Shown here: positions 1 through 16,093 of the stretch, in pieces
Numbering within the stretch: position 1 is the first letter of the stretch
How the letters are laid out: every line of letters starts with the position of its first letter
Assembly: GCA_021404565.1 (NCBI GenBank)
Contig: JAAWWF010000001.1
Location: 317,613-357,612, forward strand
Source: Roseivirga sp.
GTDB taxonomy: Bacteria; Bacteroidota; Bacteroidia; Cytophagales; Cyclobacteriaceae
Direction of reading: 5' to 3'
Length of the DNA: 40,000 nucleotides
Notes under the pieces: generated by a model
The model's input: the letters and a program-made list of their open reading frames with translations, nothing else
What the model was told of the DNA's origin: nothing
Database searches by the model: none
Made by a program: the position numbers and the translations under genes

Positions 1-371
1 GGTATATCTTCCAGCTTTCCGGAGGATTTTAGTGATTCATAAGTGGCAACGGTAATACGCGAGTTGGCAGAGCTAAACATTCTTCTCACTAATATTCCTA
101 ATGAATCACTTTCCAGCTCTTCTGCCCTAAGTTTTCCAATGAGGGTGTTCAGCTCATCTACCCTTCTTTGGTTGGATGGGATCTGATTTTCACCAAATAT
201 TCGGATATCTCTTTCCAGATCATCAGCAAATGACTCTAGTGACAAAATCATCTCACTCTCTTGCTTAATCCGCTCAGCGTATTTATCGATAGCGAAAGCA
301 ATGGAGATGCCGAAAATCACCACTATCAATTCTATAAAGTGATTTTTCCAATTGATTTTGTTGTCTGGCAA
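1..371 (-). CDS. hypothetical single-pass membrane protein; the C-terminal part lies beyond the left window edge
   Basis: Minus-strand frame stays open to the window edge and is absent from the supplied track. Hand translation from TTG at 369-371 gives MPDNKINWKNHFIELIVVIFGISIAFAIDKYAERIKQESEM..., a short N-terminus followed by one hydrophobic helix. There is no in-frame ATG between this TTG and the upstream in-frame TAA. Confidence 0.4.
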   Translation of the reverse strand, partial: MPDNKINWKNHFIELIVVIFGISIAFAIDKYAERIKQESEMILSLESFADDLERDIRIFGENQIPSNQRRVDELNTLIGKLRAEELESDSLGILVRRMFSSANSRITVATYESLKSSGKLEDI

Positions 372-461
372 GGCTGGTGTGTTTCTTGAAAATTAACTAA
401 AAACAAAAAGACCACAAAGCCGCGCTTCATGGTCTCTATATAAGTTTTTTGGTTGAGCTGG

Positions 462-1406
462 TTATTCTACCACCTCTCCCATGTCTGAGAACTTATCGAT
501 TCTCTTATCGATTCTGTCATCAGTATCCATGGCCATCAGAGGCTTGAGCTCTTCCAGGATTGTCTTTTTCATTTCAGCATACATCCAGTCAGGGTTCTGG
601 TGAGCACCTCCCAGAGGTTCTTTTACAATGGCATCCACCAGACCAAAGCCCTTCATATCGTCAGCTGTGAGCTTCAGCGCCTCAGCAGCCTGCTCCTTAT
701 ATTCCCAGCTTCTCCACAGAATGGATGAGCAGGACTCAGGGGAGATTACAGAATACCAGGTATTTTCAAGCATCAAAACACGATCTCCAATGGCTATGCC
801 CAAAGCACCGCCCGAAGCGCCTTCACCTATGATGATACAGATAACAGGTACTTTCAGAGTGAACATCTCGCGGATGTTTTTTGCGATGGCTTCGCCTTGT
901 CCACGCTCTTCAGCCTCAAAGCCGGGAAAAGCCCCGGGAGTATCGATAAGGGTAACGATAGGACGATTAAATTTCTCTGCAATGCGCATCAAACGAAGTG
1001 CCTTGCGATAGCCTTCAGGATTGGCCATACCAAAATTGCGCATTTGGCGCTGCTTGGTATTTCTACCTTTCTGCTGACCGATAAACATAACGGACTGCCC
1101 GTCAAGGGTACCAAAACCACCTACCATGGCTTTGTCATCTTTGACAGTACGGTCTCCGTGAAGTTCTATAAAATCGTCAGTGATATTGTATATATAATCC
1201 AGTGTATAGGGCCTTTCGGGGTGCCTGGAAAGCTGCACTTTCTGCCAGCGGGTAAGGTTGCCGTATGTATCTTCTTTCAGCCTTTGGATCTTCTCTTCCA
1301 GCGAAACGATGGTATCAGATACATCCACCTTACTGCCTTCTGCAAGCTTTTTCATCTCTTCCAGCTTCTCTTCCAGCTCAAATATGGGTTGTTCGAATTC
1401 CAGCAT
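462..1406 (-). CDS. accA: acetyl-CoA carboxylase carboxyltransferase subunit alpha
   Basis: 314-aa ORF recognisable end to end as AccA, with an N-terminal coiled region ([16 protein letters not shown]) and the carboxyltransferase core ([48 protein letters not shown]). Confidence 0.95.
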
Positions 1407-1519
1407 AGGGACATTTTTGAAGGTACAAAATTAATATTAATCGTCTACGCTGGGTAAAGTCAGGTGAAAAATTCGACAAGCCCCTTCATTTTTACTACTT
1501 TTCCGTAAACGGACTTTTT

Positions 1520-2593
1520 ATGACCTCCGAAGCACACCTGGCTACCATAAAAAATATCCTGATCTTTTTTATGGCCATTGTGATCATCATGATCGTGAAA
1601 ACACTCTCAGGACTGCTGATTCCTTTGGCCTTTGCCATCTTTACAGGGATCCTCCTGCAACCGATCATTGCATTTCTGGAGAAGAAAAAATGGCCTTATA
1701 CTATTTCTATCACGCTCATTACCTTGCTCACAGTAGGCTGCTTTTACCTGGCCGGACTGATCATGGTAGATACAGGTTCCCAAATTGTATCTGAAAAGGA
1801 CAAGCTGCTTGGTCAGATTGAAAACAGGGCTCAAAGCATGATTGAGCAGTTTGACCACCTGCCGGGGGTAGACAAAATAGAAGTTACCAACTTCACTGAG
1901 CTGATCAATAAAGTGGCCACCTCAGACTTTATCCTGAACACCTCAGGAGTGGTAGCAGGTCAGCTGGGCACCTTTACCTGGAACTTTATTCTTGCCACTA
2001 TTTACCTGGTAGCGGTATTGGGCAGTATTGTTCGCTATGAAAAGTACATTCACTACCTGGAAGGTGATGATGATATTGGCCAGCAGCGACTGGTAAAAGC
2101 CTTTGTGGAGGTGCGCGATTCCATTGTGAGCTATATGAAGGTAAAGTTCGTTACCAGCTTTTGTACCGGGCTATGCTTCGGGCTTATTTGCTGGGCTTTC
2201 AAAATAGACTTTGCACTCTTCTGGGGCTTCTTCGCTTTTATGCTCAACTTCATTCCCACAGTAGGCTCTATCACAGCCACCATTCCCCCTATTCTGCTGG
2301 GCCTGATCCAAATCGACTCAGGAGGCACCTATACCTTCTTTATTATCCTGCTTGTGGCCACCCAGTTTGTATGGGGCAATGTAATAGAACCCCTGGTGAT
2401 GGGCTCTTCAGTAGCGCTCAACACGGTAACGGTCATTCTCGGCCTGGTGGTCTGGGGCTATATCTGGGGCGTTTCGGGTATGCTGTTATCTGTGCCGCTG
2501 ATCGTACTGGCCAGGGTAATTCTGGCGCAAATGCCCGATGCAGATATGATTGTCAAGCTCATGGGGCGTAGTCAGCTAAAAAAAGTGAAGTAG
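1520..2593 (+). CDS. AI-2E family (PerM/UPF0118) transporter
   Basis: 357-aa polytopic membrane protein. It carries the family-typical C-terminal block LNFIPTVGSITATIPPILLGL ... GNVIEPLVMG. Confidence 0.85.
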   Translation: MTSEAHLATIKNILIFFMAIVIIMIVKTLSGLLIPLAFAIFTGILLQPIIAFLEKKKWPYTISITLITLLTVGCFYLAGLIMVDTGSQIVSEKDKLLGQIENRAQSMIEQFDHLPGVDKIEVTNFTELINKVATSDFILNTSGVVAGQLGTFTWNFILATIYLVAVLGSIVRYEKYIHYLEGDDDIGQQRLVKAFVEVRDSIVSYMKVKFVTSFCTGLCFGLICWAFKIDFALFWGFFAFMLNFIPTVGSITATIPPILLGLIQIDSGGTYTFFIILLVATQFVWGNVIEPLVMGSSVALNTVTVILGLVVWGYIWGVSGMLLSVPLIVLARVILAQMPDADMIVKLMGRSQLKKVK

Positions 2594-2613
2594 TACCTTT
2601 TCAATTCACCTGA

Positions 2614-3516
2614 ATGAATTCTTTTGAACACCAGGCCATGGCCACCCAATTTCTTATTCGGATAGAAAACGAAGAGGACGACTATGCCGAAAATGCAGCC
2701 ATTCAGTGCTTTCAAAGGCTGGATGAGCTTGAAGCGAAACTCAGCCGTTTTGTGGCTGACAGTGACATCAGCCGCATCAACAAAATGGCCACAGAAGAGC
2801 AACTACCGCTGGACAGTGAAACCTGGCAAGTAATCAAGCAGGCCATTCAGGCACAACAGTGGACCGCGGGGACTTTTGATATTGGCGTGGCTGAGCACAT
2901 GGATATTTTCAGGGCGACAAAGCAGGGCATTCTCAATGAATTTGAAATGAATAAGGCCCTGGAGAAAGCTCAGCAGGCAAAGCTGGGTTCGAGCATTTAT
3001 CTGAGTCCGGACAGCCCCATGATTTACTGCATTAAGGAAGGTATGCGCTTTGATCTGGGTGGCATTGGTAAAGGCTATGCGCTGGATCAGCTGGCCCTGT
3101 TGCTTGACGACCTGGGAGTAACAACCTATAGCATCAGCGCGGGCGACAGCACGGTAATGGTACGCAATGATACCGCTGTAAGGCCTTGCTGGGAGTATAC
3201 CATCAGCGCTGCTACAGAGCAGAAAAAGCTCAAACTCAGTAATATCATTGTCAGTGCTTCCGGTACCTTTCATCAGGGCAATCATATCTTCGACCCAAGA
3301 ACGGGGCAGAATACGGGCATCTCTGAGTTCGACAGGATATGGGTGGCCTCTGAAAACGGAGCTTATTCTGATGCTTTTTCCACCGGACTCTTTCTGCTAT
3401 CAGTCGAAGAAATTGAAAAACTGGTCGATGCCGTCTCAGAAATTACATGGGTGGCTTATAGCAAGGCAGGAAAACTTCACTTTTTAAGCCGAAATCCATT
3501 AAATTTCGTGGCTTAA
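2614..3516 (+). CDS. apbE: FAD:protein FMN transferase (ApbE family)
   Basis: 300-aa ORF with ApbE hallmarks: SDISRIN early and the DLGGIGKGYALD motif. No obvious signal peptide or lipobox. Confidence 0.85.
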   Translation: MNSFEHQAMATQFLIRIENEEDDYAENAAIQCFQRLDELEAKLSRFVADSDISRINKMATEEQLPLDSETWQVIKQAIQAQQWTAGTFDIGVAEHMDIFRATKQGILNEFEMNKALEKAQQAKLGSSIYLSPDSPMIYCIKEGMRFDLGGIGKGYALDQLALLLDDLGVTTYSISAGDSTVMVRNDTAVRPCWEYTISAATEQKKLKLSNIIVSASGTFHQGNHIFDPRTGQNTGISEFDRIWVASENGAYSDAFSTGLFLLSVEEIEKLVDAVSEITWVAYSKAGKLHFLSRNPLNFVA

Positions 3517-3567
3517 TCCGCAGTAACGCGCTGGAACTGATTTATTAATCTCAAAACTCACTGGCCT

Positions 3568-4923
3568 ATGACAACAGGTAAAACCAACAGACGAAACTTT
3601 ATTAAGACCTCTACCCTCTTCGGAACGGGACTGGTATTAGCCAATCCTTTTAGCATTACGGCTAAACCGCTGATGGCGGCTGACAAGGTAAATGTAGCCG
3701 TAGTAGGCTGCGGAGGCCGTGGTGGCGGGGTCATTTTCAGCAACATTCCTAAAATACCAAGTGCCAACCTGGTGGCGGTCTGCGATATAGTAGAAAGCCG
3801 AAGAGAACGCGCCAAAGATCGCTATAATAAAGAGCACAATGGCAAGGTAAAAGCTTATGAGAACTTTTACGAAATGCTGGAGAAGGAAAACCTGGATGCC
3901 ATCGTGCTGACGACTCCTGACTTCTGGCATAAAAAGCACACAGTAGATGCCCTGGAAGCAGGCCTGCATGTATACTGCGAAAAGGCAATGTCTAACAATA
4001 TAGAGGATGCCCGCAAAATGGCCGAAGCCATGAAGAAATCCGGAAAGTTGCTTCAGATTGGCCGACAGCGAAGAAGTAACGATCGCTACCGCTTTACCTA
4101 CAATGTATTGCTGGAGCGAGAGAAGATGTTCGGGCGACTTACCCATGCCATCGGGCAGTGGAATCGCTCCAGAATCTGGACACAAAGACCAAACAAACGT
4201 GACAACCTGGACCTTGCAAAGCTGAAAGAGTATGGCTTTGACACGGTAGATCAGGTATACAACTGGCGTAACTATAAAAAGCTGGGCGGAGGTGTGGTCT
4301 CTGACTTAGGCTCACACCAGATTGATATCTTCAACTGGTTCTTTGATGCTTATCCTCATACAGTATACGCAGCCGGCAACAACTCCTACTTTGGGTTTGA
4401 ACAGGCCGATACCATGGCCACCATACTGGAATACGATACACCCAACGGACCCGCTATCGGTATTTATGAGAACATCTCTAACTCCCGTGCCATAGGTGTT
4501 TATGAGCGTTTTGTGGGAGACGATGGTGCTTTCATTATCTCAGAAGGCAAGGATAACAAGATCTATCGCGAGTCGCGAGTTCACTCGAAAAAGTGGCAGA
4601 AGTATATCGACAAAGGTTATATCAGCAATCTGGCGGATATGCAGAAGTACAAGGAGAAAGAATCGGGTGATTCCGGTATCAAGGAAACCGCTCCTCAGAT
4701 CAGCTATGACATCAACGAGATGAAGGATATGGGTAAGGTGTATAACCTGGCAGCTCATACGGCACACCTTTACAATTTTATTGAAAGCGTAAGAGAAGAA
4801 GAAACACTGAACTATGATGCCGTGAAGTCTTACAAATCTGAGGTATGTATCTACAAGATTCATGAGGCAATCAATGCCGGTGGCAACCGCATTAGGATCA
4901 CCGATAAGGAATATGATATTTAA
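3568..4923 (+). CDS. Gfo/Idh/MocA family oxidoreductase with twin-arginine signal
   Basis: The N-terminus TNRRNFIKTSTLFGTGLVLA is TAT-like. It is followed by the Rossmann motif VAVVGCGGRGG and the EKA/EKP-type motif (YCEKAM). Confidence 0.85.
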   Translation: MTTGKTNRRNFIKTSTLFGTGLVLANPFSITAKPLMAADKVNVAVVGCGGRGGGVIFSNIPKIPSANLVAVCDIVESRRERAKDRYNKEHNGKVKAYENFYEMLEKENLDAIVLTTPDFWHKKHTVDALEAGLHVYCEKAMSNNIEDARKMAEAMKKSGKLLQIGRQRRSNDRYRFTYNVLLEREKMFGRLTHAIGQWNRSRIWTQRPNKRDNLDLAKLKEYGFDTVDQVYNWRNYKKLGGGVVSDLGSHQIDIFNWFFDAYPHTVYAAGNNSYFGFEQADTMATILEYDTPNGPAIGIYENISNSRAIGVYERFVGDDGAFIISEGKDNKIYRESRVHSKKWQKYIDKGYISNLADMQKYKEKESGDSGIKETAPQISYDINEMKDMGKVYNLAAHTAHLYNFIESVREEETLNYDAVKSYKSEVCIYKIHEAINAGGNRIRITDKEYDI

Positions 4924-5114
4924 CCTGATTTATGCATTAAGAATCATAATGAAGGCTTAAAGCACAATAAGTCAGGCATTTATGTTGACGAAGCATAGCA
5001 TCGCTATGGTGATTCAACAAACTTGTGATAAATGCCCGAATTGAAGTGATTTAAGAATGGAATAGATTTCCTAATGAATGATTCAGGTTTAAGAACTGAC
5101 CAACTACAATGCAA

Positions 5115-5143
5115 AAGCCATCTCGTAAGGGATGGCTTTTTTT
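5115..5143. terminator. bidirectional Rho-independent terminator between convergent genes
   Basis: Hairpin aagccatc-tcgtaagg-gatggctt (5115-5138). It is followed by a T run on the plus strand and has a short A run on its 5' side (aaaa), read as a T run on the minus strand. It sits between the oxidoreductase and the recombinase gene. Confidence 0.6.
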
Positions 5144-5154
5144 GCAACCTAGAT

Positions 5155-5991
5155 TCACATTACAATAGAGTCAATCGGACTCTTGACCTTCACAATCTGA
5201 TCACTTGCCACATGGGTATAGATCATAGTGGTTTTTATCGAGTTGTGTCCAAGAAGTTTTTGGATAACCCTGATATCCGTTCCCCCTTCCAACAGATGGG
5301 TAGCAAAACTATGTCTTAGGGTATGCAGGGTGACTGGCTTTTGTATACCAGCCTTTTTTGTCGACCTTTTAACAATTTTCAGCGCGCTACTCCTTGAATA
5401 AGAGGCGGAAGTTTGTCCTTCAAACAAGTACTCACGAGGTTGATATTTCCTGAAGTATTCTCTCAGCAACTTCCTTAAATTTTCAGGGAACATCAGCTGT
5501 CTATCCTTTTTACCCTTAGCATTGTAAATAGTCACTACTCCCCTACTGCCATCCAGGTCCTTTACTTTCAATTGAATTAGCTCCCCCACTCTAAGTCCGA
5601 GGCTATATATGGTCACCAGAATTGCCTTGTGCTTTAAATTATCGGTTACTCTTATTAGTGATGTCACCTCTTGTTTTGACAGAACTACCGGCAGTTTAAA
5701 AGCTTTTCTGGTTACACTCAGAACTGAAAGTGATACCTGCCTGTCATAAACCAGCTTGTAAAATAGCTGTGTAGCCCCGATTACTTGCTTTTGATAAGCA
5801 TAAGACATCTTTTTATGATAGAACAGTGAAAAACACAAGTCCTGTAAAAACGTATCAGCCAGTCGGCTCCAATCTTTGAATTTGCCCGAATGTTGTAGCA
5901 ACCTCAAGGCATTGATATATACATTAATTGTATTGTGACTATAGCCTTTTATAGTCAATAGCTTTTCAAAATCCTTTAGTGTCTGAATCAT
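5155..5991 (-). CDS. tyrosine-type site-specific recombinase (XerD-like; IntI-like C-terminus but no IntI-type insertion)
   Basis: The catalytic set is visible: R in LGLRVGEL, K in [17 protein letters not shown], LLGH, and Y in MIYTHV. The C-terminal tail is [10 protein letters not shown]. The track starts at TTG 6012. I prefer ATG 5991 ([12 protein letters not shown]), because the intervening codons coincide with an inverted-repeat arm. Confidence 0.85.
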   Translation of the reverse strand: [278 protein letters not shown]

Positions 5992-5993
5992 AC

Positions 5994-6099
5994 TTCCGCA
6001 ATAACCAACCAAATCGGGGTCTTCTTAACCACAGCTAAAATAAACGGAATTATCTAATTTACTCACCTATATATATTAAAAAGATTGGTTATTGCGGAA
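5994..6099. repeat. 15-bp perfect inverted repeat (ttccgcaataaccaa / ttggttattgcggaa) with a 76-bp spacer
   Basis: Arms at 5994-6008 and 6085-6099 are exact reverse complements. The left arm lies 3-17 nt upstream of the preferred recombinase ATG. The right arm lies just upstream of the attI-like junction. Confidence 0.8.
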
Positions 6100-6104
6100 C
6101 TTTT

Positions 6105-6134
6105 GACCAAATTCCACATATAAACGAGTTGGCA
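6105..6134 (+). other. attI-like junction (gaccaaattccacatataaacgaG|TTGGCA)
   Basis: First occurrence of the CACAT..AAC..GTT junction, next to the recombinase gene. GTTGGCA (6128-6134) is the reverse complement of TGCCAAC at 6740-6746. Confidence 0.6.
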
Positions 6135-6149
6135 TTCATTGAAACAAAC

Positions 6150-6455
6150 ATGAAGTACTTAATTGACTTATCAGGAATGATCGACCTAGAAACATTCCAT
6201 GAGTATGTATCTAAGAAGCTCGACTTTCCAGCATATTATGGACAAAATTTTGATGCATTTTGGGACTGTTTGACTGATATGGATTCAAATTCAAAAATTA
6301 GAGTAGAAGGACTATCAGACTTGAGAAAAAATCTTCCTGATGCTTATGATAAATTAAAAAAGTGCATAGACGACTATCGAGAAGAATATGGACAAATTGA
6401 ATTCATGCTTTTTGAAGATAGCCCGAGCGGTGAAGGACTGATTAACAACGTATAA
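6150..6455 (+). CDS. barstar-family ribonuclease inhibitor (orphan immunity protein)
   Basis: KKLDFPAYYGQNFDAFWDCLTD aligns closely with the barstar core [23 protein letters not shown], recalled from memory. The size is also barstar-like. The track starts at TTG 6129, but ATG 6150 (MKYLIDL) is more plausible. No barnase-like gene is nearby. Confidence 0.8.
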   Translation: MKYLIDLSGMIDLETFHEYVSKKLDFPAYYGQNFDAFWDCLTDMDSNSKIRVEGLSDLRKNLPDAYDKLKKCIDDYREEYGQIEFMLFEDSPSGEGLINNV

Positions 6456-6602
6456 ACGCATGTAAGAACTTGTGTTCAGAAGTTGAATTGATGTATAATA
6501 TGGTTACGAGTATAGAGTTTTGGATGAGTCTCATGATTAAGCAATTAATTACTGAACTGTTAAAATTCAAGCCTATGAATATTTTTAAAAACATAATTGT
6601 CG

Positions 6603-6716
6603 GAGTGGGAGCTGTAGTGTGGGACCACAACATTATGACTTGTAGAATATTGTACGGAGAGACAGCTTATCAAGACGGCAGCGATGGGGGTTCGATTCCC
6701 CCTTCCCACTCTCTCT
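6603..6716 (+). other. tRNA-like acceptor/T-arm mimic; not a canonical tRNA
   Basis: Perfect T-arm ggggg-ttcgatt-ccccc at 6686-6702. It is followed directly by tcccactc (6704-6711), which pairs perfectly with gagtggga (6603-6610). The about 75 nt in between give no credible D arm or anticodon arm. Confidence 0.35.
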
Positions 6717-6739
6717 TGAAAACAAATAAAAAAACGAAA

Positions 6740-6799
6740 TGCCAACAAGGTGTATAGTGCATACCCTTCGGGATACACACCATACACAGAACGTTAGTG
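6740..6799 (+). other. attC-like site 1 (60 bp)
   Basis: Sequence TGCCAAC-aag-GTGTAT-...c(ttcg)g...-ATACAC-agaac-GTTAGTG. A continuous imperfect hairpin has AAC/GTT at the base, an unpaired spacer, a 6-bp inner box and a TTCG-capped tip. Confidence 0.7.
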
Positions 6800-6818
6800 G
6801 GCATATTCCAGAGAACTT

Positions 6819-7451
6819 ATGAATTACAGGTTTCTTATTACACTTTTTCTCTCTTTGTCATCCAGTCTGGCTCTGGCTCAAGACCACCTGGAGCCGAATT
6901 CGAATATTTTTGAAGACTATGACTTTCAGTATCAATATTATTCTCAAATACGAGATTTGCTTTTTGAGGGACTTTCTGATCAACCAATTAGTCAATTGAT
7001 AATTTTACCTTCATTCTCCAAAGAGTTGGTATGGCAGATAGACAACAACCAAAAAGACAATAAATATTACTCCATTACAAGTACTGCAAATCATAGTATT
7101 TGGTACAATCAATACGAGGACAAACCGAAAAAATTAAAACAAGAAATTTCCAGAAACGAAATAACAAAAGAATCGGCCGAACTGATACGAAAATTGTTTT
7201 TGGTCGCATTGAAAGGCGTGAAATATTCTGATGACAGACAGGGGCTTGACGGGACTAATTATTATTTTTCTGTTACTGAGATGGGTTCAAAATCCGGCAC
7301 GATCTGGTCCCCGAGAAAAGGATCAAAAATGAGAGAATTGGTTGATCTTTCCCAAAGAGTCATAGGAGAAACTCAAAAGCAATCCAACTTAAGTAAGAGC
7401 TTAATTAAGGACATTAATAAACTCATATCGGAACTAAATAACGCTCACTAA
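6819..7451 (+). CDS. hypothetical secreted protein (cassette 2)
   Basis: 210-aa ORF with a signal peptide (MNYRFLITLFLSLSSSLALAQ). The ATG lies 26 nt after the GTT junction. The stop codon TAA is embedded in the CACTAAC box. Confidence 0.7.
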   Translation: MNYRFLITLFLSLSSSLALAQDHLEPNSNIFEDYDFQYQYYSQIRDLLFEGLSDQPISQLIILPSFSKELVWQIDNNQKDNKYYSITSTANHSIWYNQYEDKPKKLKQEISRNEITKESAELIRKLFLVALKGVKYSDDRQGLDGTNYYFSVTEMGSKSGTIWSPRKGSKMRELVDLSQRVIGETQKQSNLSKSLIKDINKLISELNNAH

Positions 7452-7563
7452 CAAACGCTACGAATGAATATGCGAACTGATCATTTTGAACAGACAGTGC
7501 TAAACAGAAACCTATGCACGTATAGCAAATGGAGTGCATACTCACTTCAGTCAGATGTTACCA
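7446..7563 (+). other. attC-like site 2 (about 118 bp)
   Basis: Starts with CACTAAC, the reverse complement of GTTAGTG at 6793-6799, and ends with GTTACCA. It contains a 7-bp hairpin, tatgcac...gtgcata. Its first about 35 nt are shared with the site at 9076. Confidence 0.6.
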
Positions 7564-7579
7564 CTCTTACCCAATACTC

Positions 7580-8338
7580 ATGAAGATTCTACTTACCATA
7601 TTCTTTCTATCATTCTTCAACTTTCCAAACGCCCAGGATGTGCCAACTCTTAAACCAAGAATTGGGAAGATGCTGAATTTCGGGCCAACTGTTCAAAAAG
7701 AATGGGCCATAAGAGACAAGGCAATGAGCGATTTAAGCGAGGGCAACAGAACATGGGACGAACTAACACCTGAAGAACAGGCAACCTTTGAAAAGTACGG
7801 GGAGATTTATGAAGATATGTGGGATATTGTGGGTGGTGCATGCACTTGGTATTGTGGCGGTGGCCAGGACACACAAACAGCCTCATCCGAACTGACTGCA
7901 CAAGGCACCAGCACATATAACGCACAAAATGCTCACGATTTAAGCTACGAAACAGCATGGGTGGAAGGCGTTTCGGGATATGGAATTGGAGAATATATTG
8001 AATATCATGTTGAGCCGGAAAACCCTCGAATGACCGAAATCATTATTGTCAACGGTTATGTAAAAAGTGATAACGCCTGGAAGAACAATTCCAGAGTCAA
8101 AAAATTAAAAATGTACATTGACAATAAACCATATGCCATCCTTGAACTTGAAGACTCTAAAGCCGAACAACATTTCAAGGTTGATCCGATTGGATATGGA
8201 GATCGCGACAACTTCGAACTTTTGAAGAAGAAGCCCGGGTTCACGCTCAAGTTTGAGATTGTAGATGTTTACCCTGGCTTAAAGTGGGAAGACACAGCAA
8301 TAACGGAAATTTACTTTGACGGGATTGACGTACATTAA
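7580..8338 (+). CDS. secreted protein with a C-terminal discoidin-like / NADase-type glycan-binding-like domain (cassette 3)
   Basis: Signal peptide MKILLTIFFLSFFNFPNAQ from ATG 7580; the track starts earlier, at 7529. The C-terminal pattern SSEL...Y.A.NA.D....TAWVEG..GYGIGEYIEY....IIIVNGY.KS......NSRVKK resembles that domain family. This assignment is from memory. Confidence 0.6.
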   Translation: MKILLTIFFLSFFNFPNAQDVPTLKPRIGKMLNFGPTVQKEWAIRDKAMSDLSEGNRTWDELTPEEQATFEKYGEIYEDMWDIVGGACTWYCGGGQDTQTASSELTAQGTSTYNAQNAHDLSYETAWVEGVSGYGIGEYIEYHVEPENPRMTEIIIVNGYVKSDNAWKNNSRVKKLKMYIDNKPYAILELEDSKAEQHFKVDPIGYGDRDNFELLKKKPGFTLKFEIVDVYPGLKWEDTAITEIYFDGIDVH

Positions 8339-8343
8339 ACATG

Positions 8344-8511
8344 TGGTAACATCCCCCCTCCCCCTCGTTCGCAACGAAGAGGCTAATCACGGAGCATCTC
8401 CATCTTTATTTCGTTAAATTAAAGCCAAAGACACAGCTTTGGCTACCGTGAGGGCGAAAGGAAAGGACAGTGCCTTGAAGTCCCTCGTAACACATCGCCA
8501 AACCGTTATGA
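8344..8511 (+). repeat. attC-like site 3; family-1 repeat copy A (about 168 bp)
   Basis: Starts with TGGTAAC, the reverse complement of GTTACCA at 7557-7563, and ends with aaaccGTTATGA. It shares long identical blocks with 9585-9766 and 13262-13440: gcaacgaagaggc, atctccatctttatt, ctttggctacc. An internal 8-bp hairpin is agccaaag-acacag-ctttggct. Confidence 0.7.
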
Positions 8512-8538
8512 GCAACAGAGTTGATTTAAAAATATTCC

Positions 8539-9081
8539 ATGAGGGATTTATTACTGTTTAGGGAGAATATAATCGATTCCCAAGAATTTGAAGAGCTTAA
8601 TAAATTGAGACTTCCGCCTGTTTACAAATCCTTTGCAACCGTATTCAAACCATATTTTGGTTTTACAACTTGTCTTGATGAATCGGATAGTATTAAGAAG
8701 GATTTCATGACACACATATTCTGTTCATTAGAAAAAGCGAAATATCAAATAGATGATGATGAACTTTCATTTGAACAGTTTATTGACTTAGAGGACTTAC
8801 TTAAATATGATAGTCAAAGGTATTATCTTGAGAAGTTTGGATTAATGCCAATTAGTAAGCATGGTCATTCCGGGAGTCTGTTTGTTGGTATGAAAAAAGA
8901 TAATCTAGATCAGATTTATTATGCCTTAGATACGCATGAGTTTAGTTTTATGGCAGATAACATATTTGAGTTACTAAGTAATTTCAGGTTAGTAACTGTC
9001 AATTATGATTTTGAAACCTTGGATGAAAATAAATTGTATCAAAACTGGAGAGAGGACTTTTGGAGGCACAAAAGCTCATAA
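8539..9081 (+). CDS. SMI1/KNR4 (SUKH superfamily) immunity-like protein (cassette 4)
   Basis: The N-terminal LRLPPVYKSFATVF and central LMPISKHGHSGSLFVGMKKDNLDQIYY fit the SUKH pattern (LP.dYk.F ... G.G..l.........vY). The stop TAA is embedded in TCATAAC. Confidence 0.6.
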   Translation: MRDLLLFRENIIDSQEFEELNKLRLPPVYKSFATVFKPYFGFTTCLDESDSIKKDFMTHIFCSLEKAKYQIDDDELSFEQFIDLEDLLKYDSQRYYLEKFGLMPISKHGHSGSLFVGMKKDNLDQIYYALDTHEFSFMADNIFELLSNFRLVTVNYDFETLDENKLYQNWREDFWRHKSS

Positions 9082-9123
9082 CGAATGCTAAAAATGAATA
9101 TGCGCACTGAGCCCTATGATAAT
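9076..9123 (+). other. attC-like site 4, apparently truncated or degenerate
   Basis: TCATAAC is the reverse complement of GTTATGA at 8505-8511. The next about 30 nt match the start of site 2: taac.aa.gcta..aatgaatatgcg.actga. No GTT junction follows, only GATAATC at 9117-9123, which overlaps the next ATG. Confidence 0.4.
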
Positions 9124-9580
9124 CTATAATCAAACTTCGACATTTAAGAAAAATGTAGGTGGCATTTTAATAGGCTTTTTGATTATACCAGCAATTTTTC
9201 TATTCATTCAAGGGTATATTTTCTATGGAATTGTTTTGATAATAATCTACCTGGCTTTTGAAACTTCACGAACCGGTGTAAATTTTAATTTTGGTGAATT
9301 TGAGTTTACAGATTTCAGAGAAGTATTGTTTATAAAAATCCGACAAAAGGAAAGTATTAGTCTTAACACTTTTAGCCGCTACAGGGTTAAACTACAGACT
9401 ACTACTACTACCATGAGGGCTAATTTTGTTCAACATTCTACGGTTTCGCAAGAACACCATACAGTAGAACTTTTTAATAAGCATCAAGGTGAGTTTTTAC
9501 CAATTGTCAAAAGCGATATTAGTCAGATTCAACCCCTTCTAATCAAATTAGAAGAGCAAAACATAATTTTAAAAGATTAA
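9116..9580 (+). CDS. hypothetical membrane protein (two N-terminal hydrophobic helices)
   Basis: 154-aa ORF with GGILIGFLIIPAIFLFIQGYIFYGIVLIIIYLAF. It is followed immediately by a family-1 repeat. Confidence 0.6.
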   Translation: MIIYNQTSTFKKNVGGILIGFLIIPAIFLFIQGYIFYGIVLIIIYLAFETSRTGVNFNFGEFEFTDFREVLFIKIRQKESISLNTFSRYRVKLQTTTTTMRANFVQHSTVSQEHHTVELFNKHQGEFLPIVKSDISQIQPLLIKLEEQNIILKD

Positions 9581-9584
9581 CGAC

Positions 9585-9766
9585 TCACAACAAACGCTAA
9601 ATCCCGCCTCTCTCCTCCTCATTTGCAACGAAGAGGCAAATCACGAAGCATCTCCATCTTTATTTTGTTAAATTTAGTCCCAAAGGCACAGCTTTGGCTA
9701 CCATGTGAGCGAAAAGAAAGGTTAGTACCTTGAAATCCCGCACTACGCATAGCCAAACCGTTCTCT
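9585..9766 (+). repeat. attC-like site 5; family-1 repeat copy B (about 180 bp)
   Basis: Begins with TCACAAC-aaacgcta; an alternative box GATTAAC at 9575-9581 overlaps the stop codon. Ends with aaaccGTTCTCT (9760-9766). It is collinear with copies A and C. Confidence 0.65.
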
Positions 9767-9854
9767 GCAAGCAAAAAATTAGAATTTCTGTCCTATTTAT
9801 TTAATCTCATTCGTCAGATAGGTGTTGATTTAAATTTTAAATAAAAGTAAACGA

Positions 9855-10208
9855 ATGAAAGATTTTATGATGCTGTTCCATAGTGAACCAAATCCAAATT
9901 ATGAACCAACTCCAGAAGAGATTCAAGACGAATTAAAAAGATGGGAGGACTGGATGGGATCTATTGGTGCTCAAGGAAAACTTAAAAATCCAGGAGAGGC
10001 ATTAGGCTTCGAAGGAAAAACAATGCACTCAGATGGATCTATCACCGATGGCCCCTATGCAGAAGTAAAAGAAATAGTTGGTGGATTTATGATTGTTAGT
10101 GCTGAGTCGGTTGAAGATGCGATCAAACTTGCTGATGGCTGCCCAGCGTTAGCCAGTGGAGGTAAAGTAGAAGTTAGAGATATTATGAATTTTGAAGATA
10201 TGGAATGA
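9855..10208 (+). CDS. YCII-related (DGPF-type) domain protein
   Basis: 117 aa with the motif DGPYAEVKEIVGGFMIVSAESVEDAIKLADGCP...VEVR, typical of YCII/DGPF proteins. Its stop overlaps the next gene's start (ATGA). Confidence 0.8.
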   Translation: MKDFMMLFHSEPNPNYEPTPEEIQDELKRWEDWMGSIGAQGKLKNPGEALGFEGKTMHSDGSITDGPYAEVKEIVGGFMIVSAESVEDAIKLADGCPALASGGKVEVRDIMNFEDME

Positions 10209-11473
10209 CATATCCCGAAAATGAAATAGCACAATTATTTAAGACAGAGTACAGTAACTTGGTTGCTGTACTTTGTCGTTTTTATGGCATTGAAAATATT
10301 CAATTGGCTCAGGATATTGTAAGCGACACTTTTCTTAAAGCTATGAAGACCTGGTGCCATAATGGGATACCCGACAAGCCCAAAGCGTGGTTAAGGCGAG
10401 TAGCTATTAACCAACTCAAAGATCATTTCAGAAGAGATAACGTTTTCCGCGAAAAAGTTCAACCAGAATATTACCATTCCATTGACAAGGACCTAAATGT
10501 TCCATTTAGTGAAGAACTCATAAATGATAGTCAGCTAAGGATGCTGTTTGTTATATGTCATTCTGAACTAAAGAAGGAAGAACATATTTGTCTATCGTTA
10601 AGACTGCTTTGTGGCTTTTCTGTAATTGAAATAGCAAAGGCACTTCTTACTTCAAAAGATGCCATTAATAAAAAAATGTACAGGGCTAAGCAAAAATTAA
10701 GGAATCACCGTGCTAGCTTTCGCGAGCTGAAAAAATCCGAATACAGCTATAGAATTGACAGCGTCTTGCGAATACTTTATCTACTTTTTAATGAAGGTTA
10801 TTACAGCAACAATATAGAAAAAGACATTCAATCGGACCTGTGCCGGGAAGCTCTTAGGCTAAGCCTTTTTTTATCACAACAATCGTTTTTACCCCGCAGT
10901 AAAATATATGCTCTAATTTCATTGATGAGCTTTCAAGCTTCGAGATTAGAAGCAAGAAAAAGTAAAGACGGACAATTTATTCTCTTCGAACAACAAGATA
11001 AAAGTTTGTGGAATAAGGACTTAATAAAGAAAGGAGAAGAATATTTATCCCTTTCCGCTAAAGGCTCTACGGTATCAAAATATCATTTGGAAGCTGCCAT
11101 TGCCTATTGGCATACTACTGATAAGAGTAAAAAATGGCAAAATATACTTCAACTCTATAATAGACTATTGACGATCGAATATTCTCCAATAATTGCTATG
11201 AATCGTACATATGCGTTAGCTAAGGCAAACTCCGTAGATGAGGCTTTAACAGAAGCTCAGAAGTTGAATTTGTCAGAGAACCATTTCTACTATTGCCTTA
11301 TTGCAGAATTATATAGAATGAAAGGTAATATGAAGAAGGAACTCGATTTGCTTAAACTTGCCTTACAATATGCGGAGAAGGAGAATGAACGAACTTTGAT
11401 ACAAACCAAGATAGAAAGCCAGCAAAAACCACCATCTTATACCGTACTGGGCGCTGGCTCTTCAAAAACGTAA
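10205..11473 (+). CDS. sigma-70 family (ECF-type) RNA polymerase sigma factor with a long C-terminal helical extension
   Basis: 422 aa. Region 2-like segment AQDIVSDTFLKAMKTW...PKAWLRRVAINQLKDHFRR, region 4-like segment LRLLCGFSVIEIAKALLTSKDAINKKMYRAKQKL, then about 230 aa of TPR-like helices. A YCII plus sigma pairing is a common operon type. Confidence 0.8.
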   Translation: MTYPENEIAQLFKTEYSNLVAVLCRFYGIENIQLAQDIVSDTFLKAMKTWCHNGIPDKPKAWLRRVAINQLKDHFRRDNVFREKVQPEYYHSIDKDLNVPFSEELINDSQLRMLFVICHSELKKEEHICLSLRLLCGFSVIEIAKALLTSKDAINKKMYRAKQKLRNHRASFRELKKSEYSYRIDSVLRILYLLFNEGYYSNNIEKDIQSDLCREALRLSLFLSQQSFLPRSKIYALISLMSFQASRLEARKSKDGQFILFEQQDKSLWNKDLIKKGEEYLSLSAKGSTVSKYHLEAAIAYWHTTDKSKKWQNILQLYNRLLTIEYSPIIAMNRTYALAKANSVDEALTEAQKLNLSENHFYYCLIAELYRMKGNMKKELDLLKLALQYAEKENERTLIQTKIESQQKPPSYTVLGAGSSKT

Positions 11474-11478
11474 ATCTC

Positions 11479-11588
11479 AGATAACGCACGAGCCAGCTTT
11501 ACACAAACTCTTAAAATAAACACCTCTAAAATCCCAAAGTCTTTTTATCTTCTTCTCAATTCACGTCTGATACCTTCGGACGTTGACA
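11479..11588 (+). other. possible attC-like site 6 (weak)
   Basis: AGATAAC at 11479-11485 is one mismatch from the AGAGAAC expected from GTTCTCT at 9760-9766. GTTGACA at 11582-11588 is preceded by ttcacgtctgataccttcggac. The fit to the junction consensus is only partial. Confidence 0.35.
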
Positions 11589-11633
11589 GTAATTCGGAAC
11601 AACAAAATTTGATTTGGACCAAATCTCAAAAAA

Positions 11634-12062
11634 ATGAAAACAACCACATTTCTAACATTTGTAGGTGTTCAATGCGGAAAGGCTGAAGAAGCCATAAATT
11701 TCTATACTTCTATCTTCCCAAACTCGGAAATTAAAAGCATTACAAAATACTCAGAAGGTGAGGCAGGAGGAACACCGGAGCTTATCAAACATGGAGTGTT
11801 TACATTAAATGGTGTGGAGTATATGGTTTCCGAAAGTAATTATAATCACGCCTGGTCATTTACACCTGGGGTATCCCTGTTTGTTTCCTGCAACTCTGAA
11901 GATGAGATACAAAATTTATTCGAAGAACTTTCTTCAAATGGAGGTCAGATAATGGTTCCTTTAGACAACTACCAAGGCGAAGGTGATTACGGATTTGGTA
12001 AAAAATTCGGATGGTGCGAAGACAAATATGGCATTTCATGGCAGCTGAATCTTTCAGAATAA
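11634..12062 (+). CDS. VOC-superfamily protein, PhnB-like (3-demethylubiquinone-9 3-methyltransferase-domain family)
   Basis: 142 aa. The pattern F.G.C.EA..FY..IF.....I........G........H..F.L.G......S........FTP..S..V ... KFGWC.DKYGISWQL is typical of this family. Confidence 0.75.
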   Translation: MKTTTFLTFVGVQCGKAEEAINFYTSIFPNSEIKSITKYSEGEAGGTPELIKHGVFTLNGVEYMVSESNYNHAWSFTPGVSLFVSCNSEDEIQNLFEELSSNGGQIMVPLDNYQGEGDYGFGKKFGWCEDKYGISWQLNLSE

Positions 12063-12093
12063 ATGAGATGGATTATTTAGTAATAACTACTTC

Positions 12094-12128
12094 GCCCAAA
12101 TTCCACATATCAACCTGTTATAGGCAAT
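12094..12128 (+). other. internal attI-like / attC-like junction (gcccaaattccacatatcaacctG|TTATAGgcaat)
   Basis: The 15 nt ccaaattccacatat (12096-12110) are identical to 6107-6121 in the attI-like site. An AAC..GTT..GCAAT junction follows. Confidence 0.55.
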
Positions 12129-12134
12129 TAAGAA

Positions 12135-12479
12135 ATGGAATATCAAGAATGTAACCTGAATATAAGATATGATTTGCCTAAAGACATTTGGGACAAAGTT
12201 CCTTTAATTTATCAAAAAATGAATGGCTGGATGGGCTTCGGAAAAGATGGAAATGAGGAAAGCGGAATTCCTTATTGGTTCAGCTATCACGAGGAAGAAA
12301 AATCTATTGTAGCCTCCGTTGAACCAAGCGGTCTTCAATTTTCAGCAAATATGGAGTTGAATGAATGGACGGAATGGAAAACCGAATTTAAAAGAGTAGC
12401 AACCAAAGTTCTCGGATTTAAGGTTGGTGAAATAGAAGAAGGTGAAGTTGATTACGAAATTCAATGGATAAAAGAATAA
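12135..12479 (+). CDS. hypothetical protein (cassette 8)
   Basis: 114-aa ORF starting 18 nt after the GTT junction. No recognisable family. Confidence 0.6.
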   Translation: MEYQECNLNIRYDLPKDIWDKVPLIYQKMNGWMGFGKDGNEESGIPYWFSYHEEEKSIVASVEPSGLQFSANMELNEWTEWKTEFKRVATKVLGFKVGEIEEGEVDYEIQWIKE

Positions 12480-12541
12480 ACCACCTACCATACCATGTAA
12501 TACTGCGTTAAACGTATTTCACACTAAACCTTATAAGCAAT
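12480..12541 (+). other. attC-like site 8, ending ...ttcacactaaacc|TTATAAGcaat
   Basis: The junction is homologous to 12111-12128 (aacc..TTATA.GCAAT), but C replaces the usual G before TT. An internal hairpin is gtaatac...gtatttc. Confidence 0.45.
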
Positions 12542-12598
12542 ACAAAGAGAGGGTCAGGTTTCACCAGGGTTAGTAATTGCCAGCATTATTCCATTCTA

Positions 12599-13201
12599 CT
12601 ATTTCTGTTTCACACATCTGACGCTAAGAGCATAGAACTTGGGGACACTACTTCGGTATATGGCACCTGTATCATTTCTAATATCACGATGCAAAGCGGA
12701 CTTTAAACTCGTTTCGGTGCTTAGCCAAAATGCAGACCTCTGCCCTCTGCGGTCATAGGATCCATTTGGCCTTCTGTAACCTGATATAGTTGCATTGAAC
12801 TTTAAATCCCCACCAATTCTAAGACGTTCACCTTGAGAAGTTCCCCTGAATTTTTCATTTAATAATTCACTTTCCGGGATTCCAATAACTTTCTCAAGTT
12901 CCAACCAATCTGAATCACTTGAAAGCCTCCATCCATCAGGACAAACTTTACAGGCATCGTACCAGGTATAAAGTCGTCCGTTTTTATCACAGTCATTCAG
13001 GTCATCATCATAACACCAGCTTGAATCTGTTTCAAAGGCAAGGTTTTCAGCCATCCAGATCTGTCCATCAATTTCTATCGTTTGATAAATTCTTCCATCA
13101 CGCTCATCAGTAAAAACTCCTTGCTCCTTTTTTGTACAACTGATTGAAAAAGACAAAACAGTGAGCGTCACTAATACAATTATCCGATCCATAAAGCTCA
13201 T
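12599..13201 (-). CDS. FISUMP (Fibrobacter succinogenes major paralogous) domain lipoprotein, inverted relative to the array
   Basis: Lipobox-like LSFSISC. Family pattern: GRIYQTIEIDGQIWMAENL, GRLYTW, CPDGWRLSSDSDW, GYR..NG, FWLST. Confidence 0.8.
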   Translation of the reverse strand: MSFMDRIIVLVTLTVLSFSISCTKKEQGVFTDERDGRIYQTIEIDGQIWMAENLAFETDSSWCYDDDLNDCDKNGRLYTWYDACKVCPDGWRLSSDSDWLELEKVIGIPESELLNEKFRGTSQGERLRIGGDLKFNATISGYRRPNGSYDRRGQRSAFWLSTETSLKSALHRDIRNDTGAIYRSSVPKFYALSVRCVKQK

Positions 13202-13261
13202 TCTATAGTTTCAAGATGAAAATATGCTTATCGTCTTATTTACGTGAACTGTTGTACTTCG

Positions 13262-13440
13262 GATACTATTCAAACTCTCTCCTCCTCGCAGGCAACGAAG
13301 AGGCAAATCACGGAGAATCTCCATCTTTATTTCGTTAAGTTTAATCTCAAAGACAAAACTTTGGCTACCGCCCGTGCGGCTGAACAGGACAGTGCCCTAC
13401 CCTTCCCGCGCTACACATAGCCAGAACGTAGGACGCAAGC
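13262..13440 (+). repeat. family-1 repeat copy C, ending agaacGTAGGACgcaagc
   Basis: Collinear with copies A and B. The left half is near-identical (ctctcctcctc..gcaacgaagaggcaaatcacggagaatctccatctttatttcgttaa). The junction triplet is GTA rather than GTT, and no clear xxxxAAC start box is present. Confidence 0.65.
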
Positions 13441-13469
13441 AGAAAAACCAAATAATGTAGCATTGATTT

Positions 13470-14171
13470 ATGAATACTTCTGAGATAATAGAGTTACTCG
13501 AAGAACATCGCAATGAGCGTGGTATTGATCATTGGAATAGATTGAACCCGGAACCTGATAGCTTGAAGAGCTTTGGTATTGGGTTGACTGTCTTGCGCAA
13601 ATTGGCAAAGAAGCTGGGACGAGATCATGAGTTGTCCAAAACGCTATGGGAGAGTGATATTTATGATGTCAAGGTACTTTCTCTGCTGATTGATGATCCT
13701 AAGTTGATGAGCGTGGAGCAAGCAGAATCTCAGGTAGACCACCTGTATAAGGGGCATCTGGCACACGTGTTTTCATCCTGTGATGCAGCCCTGGCTAAAA
13801 CCTCATTTGTGGTCCCTCTTTTAATGAGTTGGATCAACAGCAATAACACTATTCGTAAGCGATGTGGATATGGTCTGCTCTATGAGGTTTCAAAATTCAC
13901 TAAAAAGAGTGCTCCTGACAACTCATTTTTTTTGGATAGAATCGAGCAAATTCAAAATTCATTCAGGGATGAGAAGAATATCATCAAACTCGCCATGGCC
14001 GGGGCACTCCTGGGTATTGGCAAAAGAAATGTAGCATTGAATTCAGCGGCACTCGCTGTTGCTCAACAAATGGGCCCCGTTGATGTCAATTCTGGTGTAA
14101 CCAATTGTGAGCCCTTTGATATTGTCAAGCATTTGACAAGCGATTACCTTAAGAACAAGCTTAACGTCTGA
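13470..14171 (+). CDS. DNA alkylation repair protein (HEAT-like repeat, AlkD/AlkC-related family)
   Basis: 233 aa. The N-terminal pattern (EEHRNERGIDHWNRL...FGIGLTVLRKLAKKLGRDHELSKTLWESDIYDVKVLSLLIDDP) matches the DNA_alkylation family as I recall it. Confidence 0.65.
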   Translation: MNTSEIIELLEEHRNERGIDHWNRLNPEPDSLKSFGIGLTVLRKLAKKLGRDHELSKTLWESDIYDVKVLSLLIDDPKLMSVEQAESQVDHLYKGHLAHVFSSCDAALAKTSFVVPLLMSWINSNNTIRKRCGYGLLYEVSKFTKKSAPDNSFFLDRIEQIQNSFRDEKNIIKLAMAGALLGIGKRNVALNSAALAVAQQMGPVDVNSGVTNCEPFDIVKHLTSDYLKNKLNV

Positions 14172-14184
14172 CAGGTCACATATT

Positions 14185-14215
14185 CTGAGAACAATTCTTT
14201 AACAAGGCTTATAAC
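14185..14215 (+). other. terminal cluster of xxxxAAC boxes (cTGAGAAC, TTTAAC, CTTATAAC)
   Basis: CTTATAAC (14208-14215) is the reverse complement of GTTATAAG and matches TTATAAG at 12531-12537. No downstream GTT junction occurs before the convergent gene's stop at 14234. Confidence 0.45.
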
Positions 14216-14233
14216 AGAAAGAAACCTATCTGA

Positions 14234-16087: not shown

Positions 16088-16093
16088 CAGTTT

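Follow-up and report, generated by a model that had tools for sequence, protein, structure and literature searches.

Barstar and SUKH immunity genes without toxins in a probable integron-type cassette array of Roseivirga

Introduction

SUKH and barstar proteins are immunity proteins of polymorphic toxin systems and of barnase. A 40-kb stretch of DNA from Roseivirga sp. (contig JAAWWF010000001.1; hereafter the window, whose positions number all features given here) carries one gene of each family in an array beside a tyrosine recombinase, which raises the question of how immunity genes come to stand there without toxins, and what they do. A preliminary description of the region 6150-9081 had answered it with a stockpile of orphan immunity genes following the logic of acquired interbacterial defence clusters. 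Our analysis indicates that this region probably comprises the first four cassettes of a sedentary chromosomal bank of integron type, general in its content, among which are orphan barstar and SUKH immunity cassettes. The gene set consisted of the 40 non-nested open reading frames (ORFs) of at least 100 aa in the 40 kb, all of which were scanned with Pfam; the related contigs and loci used for comparison are numbered L001-L097.

Anatomy of the array

Four co-oriented genes occupy 6150-9081 on the plus strand, encoding a barstar, two exported proteins and a protein of the SUKH/SMI1-KNR4 type. They belong to a low-GC block at about 5155-13446, in which the GC content is 0.374 for the array (6129-13428) and 0.395 for the recombinase gene, against 0.456 and 0.448 in the flanks, where Pfam detected SusC/DUF4249-type genes. 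Three families of repeats lie between the array genes. The features from the recombinase to the fourth cassette are as follows.

5155-5991, minus strand: tyrosine recombinase, 278 aa from its ATG, divergent from the cassettes (Phage_integrase, E 1e-41)
5992-6130, plus strand: attI-like site with three boxes, core CCAAATTCCACATATAAACGAG, crossover G|TT at 6128-6130
6129-6793, plus strand: cassette 1, with barstar (6150-6455), a non-coding element (6469-6712) and attC1 (6740-6799); start box GTTGGCATT (6128) and end box AATGCCAAC (6738), complementary
6794-7557, plus strand: cassette 2, with an exported 210-aa protein (6819-7451) and attC2 (7446-7564, CACTAAC...GTTACCAC); start box GTTAGTG (6793) and end box CACTAAC (7446), complementary
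7558-8505, plus strand: cassette 3, with an exported glycan-binding-domain protein (7580-8338) and the long attC3 (8343-8512, 170 nt); start box GTTACCAC (7557) and end box GTGGTAAC (8343), complementary
8506-9119, plus strand: cassette 4, with SUKH (8539-9081) and an attC cut short (9075-9119, 5' part only); start box GTTATGAGC (8505) and end box GCTCATAAC (9074-9082), complementary

Each of these four cassettes starts after G|TT, and the box ending in AAC after its own gene is the reverse complement of that start. Beyond the GTT/AAC itself the complementarity extends over 6, 4, 5 and 6 nt for cassettes 1-4, and intergenic pairs that do not flank the same cassette have mostly 0-3 complementary bases. 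When the downstream regions were shuffled (2000 trials), the observed values were reached in fractions of 0.002, 0.098, 0.0025 and 0 of the trials for cassettes 1-4, and never for all four together. The superintegron of Vibrio parahaemolyticus, used as a positive control, gave values of 5-9, and eight Bacteroidota arrays with homologous recombinases (L078, L055, L017, L087, L088, L038, L004 and L001) gave 6-8. In the folded attC of integrons, a circular cassette has its two ends paired with each other. Since the complementarity of start and end is specific to each cassette, which is the signature of integron cassettes, we regard these units as true integron-type cassettes; what had been described as a recombinase-linked array thus resolves into individually mobile units.

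The attI-like site contains boxes of the type TTCCG(C/G)AATAAC at 5994-6008 and at about 6040-6054, both direct, and an inverted one at 6085-6099. The approximately 140 nt between the recombinase start and cassette 1 are conserved beside recombinases of 70-74% identity in three relatives (L081/L082/L083), and this conservation ends at the G|TT after CCAAATTCCACATATAAACGAG|TTGG. The cargo beyond that point differs among the three: one has a TIR protein of CAP12/Pycsar type, another a restriction-modification pair (Eco47II) and another an ORF of 154 aa. Because conservation stops at G|TT, exactly where the cargo changes, the region behaves as an attI site. A core of the form ATATAAAC.AG|TTGGCA is common to the window and an Algibacter array (L055).

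We infer from this anatomy that the divergent IntI/XerA-like recombinase would join circular cassettes, through their attC-like site, to the attI-like site next to it by recombination at G|TT. The TT and the 4-6 bases with which an integrated cassette opens, complementary to the ...AAC box that follows its own gene, would be the outcome of this reaction. Barstar and SUKH travel between Bacteroidota arrays as single-gene cassettes without toxin genes, and would most likely serve as orphan immunity, binding and neutralising RNase-type (barnase-like, EndoU-like) or other polymorphic toxins that competitors deliver.

Barstar cassette

The assignment of the first cassette gene to the barstar family is secure as judged by its profile match: the ORF at 6150-6455 matches PF01337 with an E value of 1.8e-21 and 76.4 bits against a cutoff of 23.4, over profile positions 4-86 of 96, and 58 of the 59 barstar homologues listed carry the PF01337 annotation. 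Compared with two homologues, it shows 15/9/46 and 3/2/19 differences at codon positions 1/2/3, and from this concentration at position 3 the gene appears to be under purifying selection. Homologues of 78-92% identity are carried by an array of Fluviicola and by contigs from marine metagenomes. In the homologous cassettes (L091 and L092 among them) the homology starts at the same G|TTGGCATTCATT, while the sequence upstream of this left boundary is attI in the window and unrelated attC sites in L091 and L092. No RNase gene adjoins the barstar homologues in the contexts examined, namely Fluviicola, the marine metagenomes and the Vibrio superintegron. Alongside its barstar homologue, the Fluviicola array contains AbiTii and an anti-Pycsar-like gene.

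In the V. parahaemolyticus superintegron (L095-L097), barstar-family cassettes 54% identical to that of the window stand in differing cassette neighbourhoods, and one of its contigs also carries a cassette for Tai4, an immunity protein against a T6SS (type VI secretion system) amidase. Since this superintegron holds both barstar and Tai4 cassettes, orphan immunity cassettes are not restricted to Bacteroidota.

Downstream of the barstar ORF, cassette 1 contains a non-coding element of about 245 nt (6469-6712) that is more conserved than barstar itself, with 86% identity to the Fluviicola copy against 77% for the ORF. It includes a T-arm-like GGGGGTTCGATTCCCCC (6686-6702), the pairing of which is kept through compensatory changes in L091, and a flanking GTGGGA...TCCCAC pair that could form an acceptor-like stem. 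We considered whether a 95-aa ORF at 6470-6757 might be a hidden toxin and rejected it; substitutions are even over the codon positions (15/9/10), and for this reason the stretch is taken to be non-coding. A tRNA or tmRNA gene in cassette 1 was likewise rejected, as ARAGORN found none and Rfam gave only a 17-nt local T-arm match to tmRNA (13.9 bits against a gathering threshold of 47). Any role of the element as a decoy, or as a regulatory RNA connected with RNase toxins, is purely speculative.

SUKH cassette

The ORF at 8539-9081 matched SMI1_KNR4 with an E value of 7.8e-5 and 23.7 bits, against a cutoff of 25.4, and SUKH_6 with an E value of 0.0098. Its product shows 100% identity to a protein from a metagenome-assembled Roseivirga sp. 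genome. PF09346 is found in 7 of its 11 homologues, one of which is named 'SMI1/KNR4 family protein' by NCBI. The AF2 model (pLDDT 66.5) had SUKH-type or Knr4/SMI1-type structures as all of its ten best fold matches in the PDB, headed by the immunity protein RhsPI (8bd1_B, E 1.4e-3) and including Knr4 and 2icg; these matches are weak, with TM scores of 0.38-0.46. A sequence search of the PDB with the same protein gave no match. In L090 (3695-8552), the gene for a 1263-aa polymorphic toxin (EndoU_bacteria) is followed, two genes downstream, by a homologue of 48% identity (P0128), and the order of genes at that locus is the toxin, a 145-aa ORF and the SUKH homologue. Taken jointly, the near-cutoff Pfam score, the PF09346 homologues, the fold matches and the homologue at the EndoU locus support the SUKH assignment, and EndoU toxins are a candidate cognate class for the cassette.

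A homologue with 72% protein identity is present in a long co-directional Tenacibaculum array (L088), and there the homology runs from the GTT to the AAC box of the cassette. The boxes themselves show a compensatory change, being GTTATGTGC/GCACATAAC in L088 and GTTATGAGC/GCTCATAAC in the window.

Search for toxins

Pfam revealed no barnase, other RNase or polymorphic toxin beside the array among the 40 ORFs of the 40 kb. The preliminary description had named cassette 1 as a barstar without a barnase-type toxin nearby and cassette 4 as a SUKH protein without an adjacent toxin, and both statements held, the former with a score far above the profile cutoff and the latter on the combined evidence given above.

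A gene for a secreted 210-aa protein with a TNT domain (tuberculosis necrotizing toxin, an NAD+ glycohydrolase; PF14021, 88.8 bits) is located at 28696-29328. It lies 15 kb past the array, in DNA of normal GC content, between ispE-like and M23 peptidase genes, and we identified no obvious immunity gene beside it. As it is neither adjacent to the array nor an RNase, the TNT protein is unlikely to be the cognate toxin.

Function of the cassettes and alternative explanations

On the sequence evidence, orphan immunity is the most likely role of the barstar and SUKH proteins. The strongest alternative accepts a working integron-type bank and has these two proteins act on RNases of the cell itself or of phages, in an antitoxin-like or anti-phage manner, or regulate. 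SMI1/KNR4 has a regulatory role in yeast. The closest relatives of the array carry CAP12/Pycsar-type TIR, Eco47II restriction-modification, HigBA-like and HipA genes, the Fluviicola barstar array has its AbiTii and anti-Pycsar-like genes, and no cognate toxin is known for either protein, all of which would fit such a role. Against it stand the SUKH homologue in the EndoU polymorphic toxin locus, an Rhs immunity protein as the best SUKH fold match, the protection that SUKH orphans of rAID-1 arrays (recombinase-associated arrays of gut Bacteroidales, discussed below) give against T6SS effectors (PMC12247911), and the PADLOC models, which match no cassette protein. We therefore consider a role outside interbacterial competition unlikely.

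It is more doubtful still that most or all of the cassettes, the exported ones included, encode immunity proteins of undescribed families, which would make the array a true stockpile. Export or membrane location, as given in the preliminary description, is indeed confirmed by the translations for the products of cassettes 2 and 3, for the 154-aa protein and for the FISUMP lipoprotein; most of them have no Pfam family, and rAID-1 arrays also hold many unassigned genes (bioRxiv 10.1101/471110). The further step from export to immunity against periplasm-acting effectors was pure inference and is not supported. Cassette 3 encodes a glycan-binding discoidin domain, which is not a known immunity fold, and for the cassette 2 protein the structural model was unusable (pLDDT 35) and yields no positive evidence. 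Other cassettes encode YCII with an ECF sigma factor and a PhnB/VOC protein, and the cargo of related arrays extends to genes for metal resistance, GNAT proteins, restriction-modification, toxin-antitoxin pairs and enzymes.

An ordinary genomic island that arose by one integrase insertion, with decayed or incidental repeats and with barstar and SUKH as remnants of modules that lost their toxins, would account for an integrase at one end of a low-GC block, for attC-like sites that are mostly not hairpins, for the one shortened attC and for the partial attI inside the array, features that suggest decay, but it is as improbable as the stockpile. We rejected the single insertion; against it stand the cassette-specific complementarity of starts and ends in the window and its relatives, identical cassettes in unrelated arrays with breaks exactly at G|TT, and two relatives that have different cassettes next to a common flank.

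The integron-type bank with orphan immunity cassettes is thus the reading that we prefer, and several observations weigh against it. The orphan status rests on 40 kb, which contain the TNT toxin-domain gene at 28696-29328. The majority of the cassettes, in this array as in its relatives, show no connection with immunity, and the cassette boundaries past about 9120 are weak. An end-to-end hairpin is formed only by attC1 (and, by eye, attC2), the long sites and attC6 having z values of -0.1 to -2.1. The recombinase is without the additional domain, which in IntI contacts the extrahelical bases of attC. The SUKH score is under the Pfam cutoff and its fold matches are weak.

attC-like sites and distal part of the array

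The first site, attC1 (6740-6799), forms a clean hairpin of 60 nt (TGCCAAC...GTTAGTG) whose ends pair, with a z value of -3.8 for the bottom strand. attC2 appears by eye as a bulged palindrome and is homologous to the first attC of L081. The sites of 170-184 nt (8343-8512, 9584-9767 and 13275-13446) form tandem hairpins with no end-to-end pairing, and attC6 hardly folds. The attC sites of related arrays measure 100-190 nt and fold strongly, with z values of -3 to -7.

The 170-nt repeat is present in three copies in the array, attC3 being one of them. In these long attC-like repeats, CTTTGGC has two alternative pairing partners, a GCCAAAG upstream of it and the 3'-terminal GCCAAA beside the crossover GTT, and their 3' half resembles the shorter attC of an Arundinibacter array (L078), with an extra 5' half besides. 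The repeat was dismissed as an Rfam RNA family, there being no match and no significant RNA folding (z 0.3 and -1.55), and as a widespread element, two metagenome scans having given nothing or chance matches of 21 nt.

The distal part of the array is composed of the following units.

9116-9767, plus strand: membrane protein of 154 aa with two helices (9116-9580), followed by a long attC (9584-9767); boxes CTCACAAC at 9584 and GTTCTCTG at 9760
9761-11582, plus strand: two-gene cassette, with YCII (9855-10208), an ECF sigma factor with DUF6596 (10205-11473) and attC6 (11478-11589)
11583-12117, plus strand: PhnB/VOC cassette, with an ORF at 11634-12062 (PF06983, E 5.8e-30), ending in a partial attI-like site (12068-12119)
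12118-13446, plus strand: distal array, with a 114-aa ORF (12135-12479), FISUMP (12599-13201, minus strand) and a long attC copy (13275-13446)

A 41-nt repeat (7449-7489 and 9079-9119) covers the 5' part of attC only. The attC of the SUKH cassette stops after about 41 nt and runs directly into the 154-aa ORF, and it is probable that the 154-aa gene became fused to cassette 4 through loss of the 3' half of attC4. The boundary of the two-gene cassette is weaker, GTTCTCTG (9760) and CAGATAAC (11478) being complementary at 4 of 5 bases beyond the GTT/AAC. The third long attC copy (13275-13446) ends in GTA at 13428. A search for boundary complementarity distal to 9120 found nothing convincing, a 5/7 match between 12117 and 14213 being within background. 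Given the sites that do not fold, the shortened attC4, the partial attI copy and the weak boundaries past about 9120, the array of the window looks partly decayed.

In the PhnB cassette, a second, partial attI core with one degenerate box (12068-12119) closes the cassette in place of an attC. The attI core repeat comprises 29 nt, and alignment lengthens it to about 55 nt. Delta-attI-type cassette ends are reported for mobile integrons (PMC12901181), and the partial copy resembles these.

Other cargo and nature of the array

The 210-aa product of cassette 2 (6819-7451) has a signal peptide, MNYRFLITLFLSLSSSLALAQD, and falls into an uncharacterised family without a Pfam match that comprises 577 cluster representatives and whose longer members contain no informative fused domain except for one CarboxypepD_reg. 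Its single-sequence AF2 model reached a pLDDT of only 34.7. The cassette 3 protein (7580-8338) carries the signal peptide MKILLTIFFLSFFNFPNAQD and an NADase-type glycan-binding discoidin (F5/8 type C) domain, matching PF25302 with an E value of 4.1e-54 and NF047619 with 2.6e-42. The 154-aa protein (9116-9580) has two hydrophobic helices, and the product of the inverted FISUMP gene (12599-13201, minus strand; Pfam, NCBIfam) has a lipoprotein signal. The PADLOC defence models gave no meaningful match to the cassette proteins; a match of the 154-aa protein to RT_UG17 (E 0.0013, 15.6 bits) is probably spurious.

Immunity families account for two of about nine cassettes, namely barstar and SUKH. 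In co-directional arrays of the recombinase family, 149 ORFs yielded 193 Pfam families, none of them in more than three ORFs; SUKH was found in two, and the cargo also included PhnB-like, glyoxalase, heavy-metal, mercury, GNAT, restriction-modification and AbiEii-like genes. The closest divergent arrays had 51 ORFs, in which the 25 commonest families were TPR, restriction-modification, toxin-antitoxin, TIR, DJ-1, esterase and similar ones, with no immunity family among these 25. We therefore see in the array a bank of accessory genes of general content, in which orphan immunity genes are one class of cargo, and no dedicated immunity store. Of the logic proposed in the preliminary description, the orphan immunity itself finds support, as SUKH and barstar cassettes recur without toxins and match rAID-1; the dedicated stockpile does not.

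L084 (Flagellimonas) and L087 (a metagenomic contig) have a common flank of purA-fur-relA-M48-SpoU beside the recombinase (1-10000). The arrays that follow (10850-20800), of at least 15 small co-oriented genes each, are entirely different.

Recombinase family

The recombinase scored 203.7 against NCBIfam NF040815 (XerA; cutoff 220) and 194 bits against the integron integrase model TIGR02249 (cutoff 265), the latter match being split in two. Its best PDB match was VchIntIA (2A3V), the Vibrio integron integrase, in two stretches. It has 23 residues at the place where IntI4 has 66, and for this reason it is taken to have no IntI additional domain; by these comparisons it is an IntI/XerA-like recombinase without that domain. 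In the literature the IntI insertion is described as 'not fully conserved' within the subgroup of integron-like recombinases. At the left edge of the low-GC block, just 3' of the recombinase gene (4919-5092), we noted a terminator-like hairpin and an inverted repeat of 65 nt that is imperfect, with 71% complementarity.

Relatives of 55-79% identity all share the divergent layout. A scan of a genome collection listed matches of at most 50% identity. Among the matches listed, recombinases of 40-48% identity belong to Flavobacteriia, Cytophagia, Chitinophagia and Bacteroidales, with a few from other phyla, and most of them are followed by a co-directional array of lower GC content (for example L078, 10802-17210, and L055, 10820-16570). 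In the arrays of these recombinases, those of Bacteroidales and Paludibacter metagenome-assembled genomes (MAGs) included, starts and ends are complementary over as many as 10 nt. About 20 of 80 contigs (L001-L080) stop within about 1 kb past the recombinase gene, as would be expected if repeated sites broke the assemblies.

Discussion

Recombinase-associated arrays of orphan immunity genes were described as rAID-1 in gut Bacteroidales (Ross et al. 2019, bioRxiv 10.1101/471110). They were defined by a recombinase at the 5' end whose identity to B. fragilis BF9343_RS08045 is 44% or higher, at least two co-directional genes downstream, a GC content of 41% or less, or skewed, and repeated intergenic motifs, which were called 'reminiscent of integrons' (bioRxiv 10.1101/471110). 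Their SUKH orphans protected experimentally against toxins and T6SS effectors, and according to the rAID authors it is not yet clear how the arrays are built (PMC12247911). Our literature search found no paper linking rAID with attC sites. Like rAID-1, the window combines a XerD-like tyrosine recombinase with a low-GC array of short genes and repeated intergenic motifs; its GC content of 0.374 and its repeats lie within the rAID-1 definition, and SUKH-type orphan immunity genes are carried by both. Recombinases of 40-48% identity, among the matches listed and as a proxy only, also head co-directional Bacteroidota arrays, Bacteroidales MAGs included. Unlike in rAID-1, the recombinase of the window is divergent rather than co-directional, the host is a marine Cytophagales (Roseivirga) MAG, and only two of about nine cassettes belong to immunity families.

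With classical chromosomal integrons the locus shares the divergent integrase, the attI and the co-oriented cassettes that follow it, the G|TT crossover, and the cassette-specific complementarity of ...AAC and GTT..., with statistics akin to those of the V. parahaemolyticus chromosomal superintegron. The cargo is also alike, consisting mostly of genes with no assigned function together with toxin-antitoxin, restriction-modification and defence genes, and orphan barstar cassettes occur in the Vibrio superintegron as well. It differs in its integrase, which has no IntI additional domain and falls short of the integron-integrase cutoffs, and in three attC-like sites of 170-184 nt that show no end-to-end folding. 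Compared with the barnase-barstar pair and with SUKH immunity in polymorphic toxin systems (RhsP-RhsPI, PDB 8BD1), the domain families are the same, and a SUKH homologue follows an EndoU gene; the window, however, has no toxin in cis, and each of its two genes forms a single-gene mobile cassette. The platform is thus a variant of integrons and of rAID-1, distinguished by the missing additional domain, the divergent layout, a marine host from the Cytophagales and attC-like sites of unusual length. The idea of acquired orphan immunity is already known from gut Bacteroidales; here the mechanics of the cassettes can be read from the DNA.

IntegronFinder surveys report almost no integrons in Bacteroidetes. 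The recombinase family and its arrays may point to a phylum-wide system of integron-type capture in Bacteroidota, which would use an integrase without the additional domain together with attI, attC, a G|TT crossover and covarying R''/R' boxes, and come in two architectures, one divergent and one co-directional with the layout of rAID-1; we regard the chances for and against this as evenly balanced. If it were true, rAID-1 arrays would be integrons in mechanism, integrons would be common in a phylum where surveys find almost none, and the additional domain would not be needed to recombine attC-type sites. Our observations suggest that integron searches keyed on this domain miss a large Bacteroidota family of cassette platforms, and the anatomy described here offers a concrete, testable mechanism for the building of rAID-type arrays. 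Orphan immunity genes in single cassettes would let environmental Bacteroidota gain resistance to toxins gene by gene, and the idea of acquired interbacterial defence would thereby be extended beyond the human gut.

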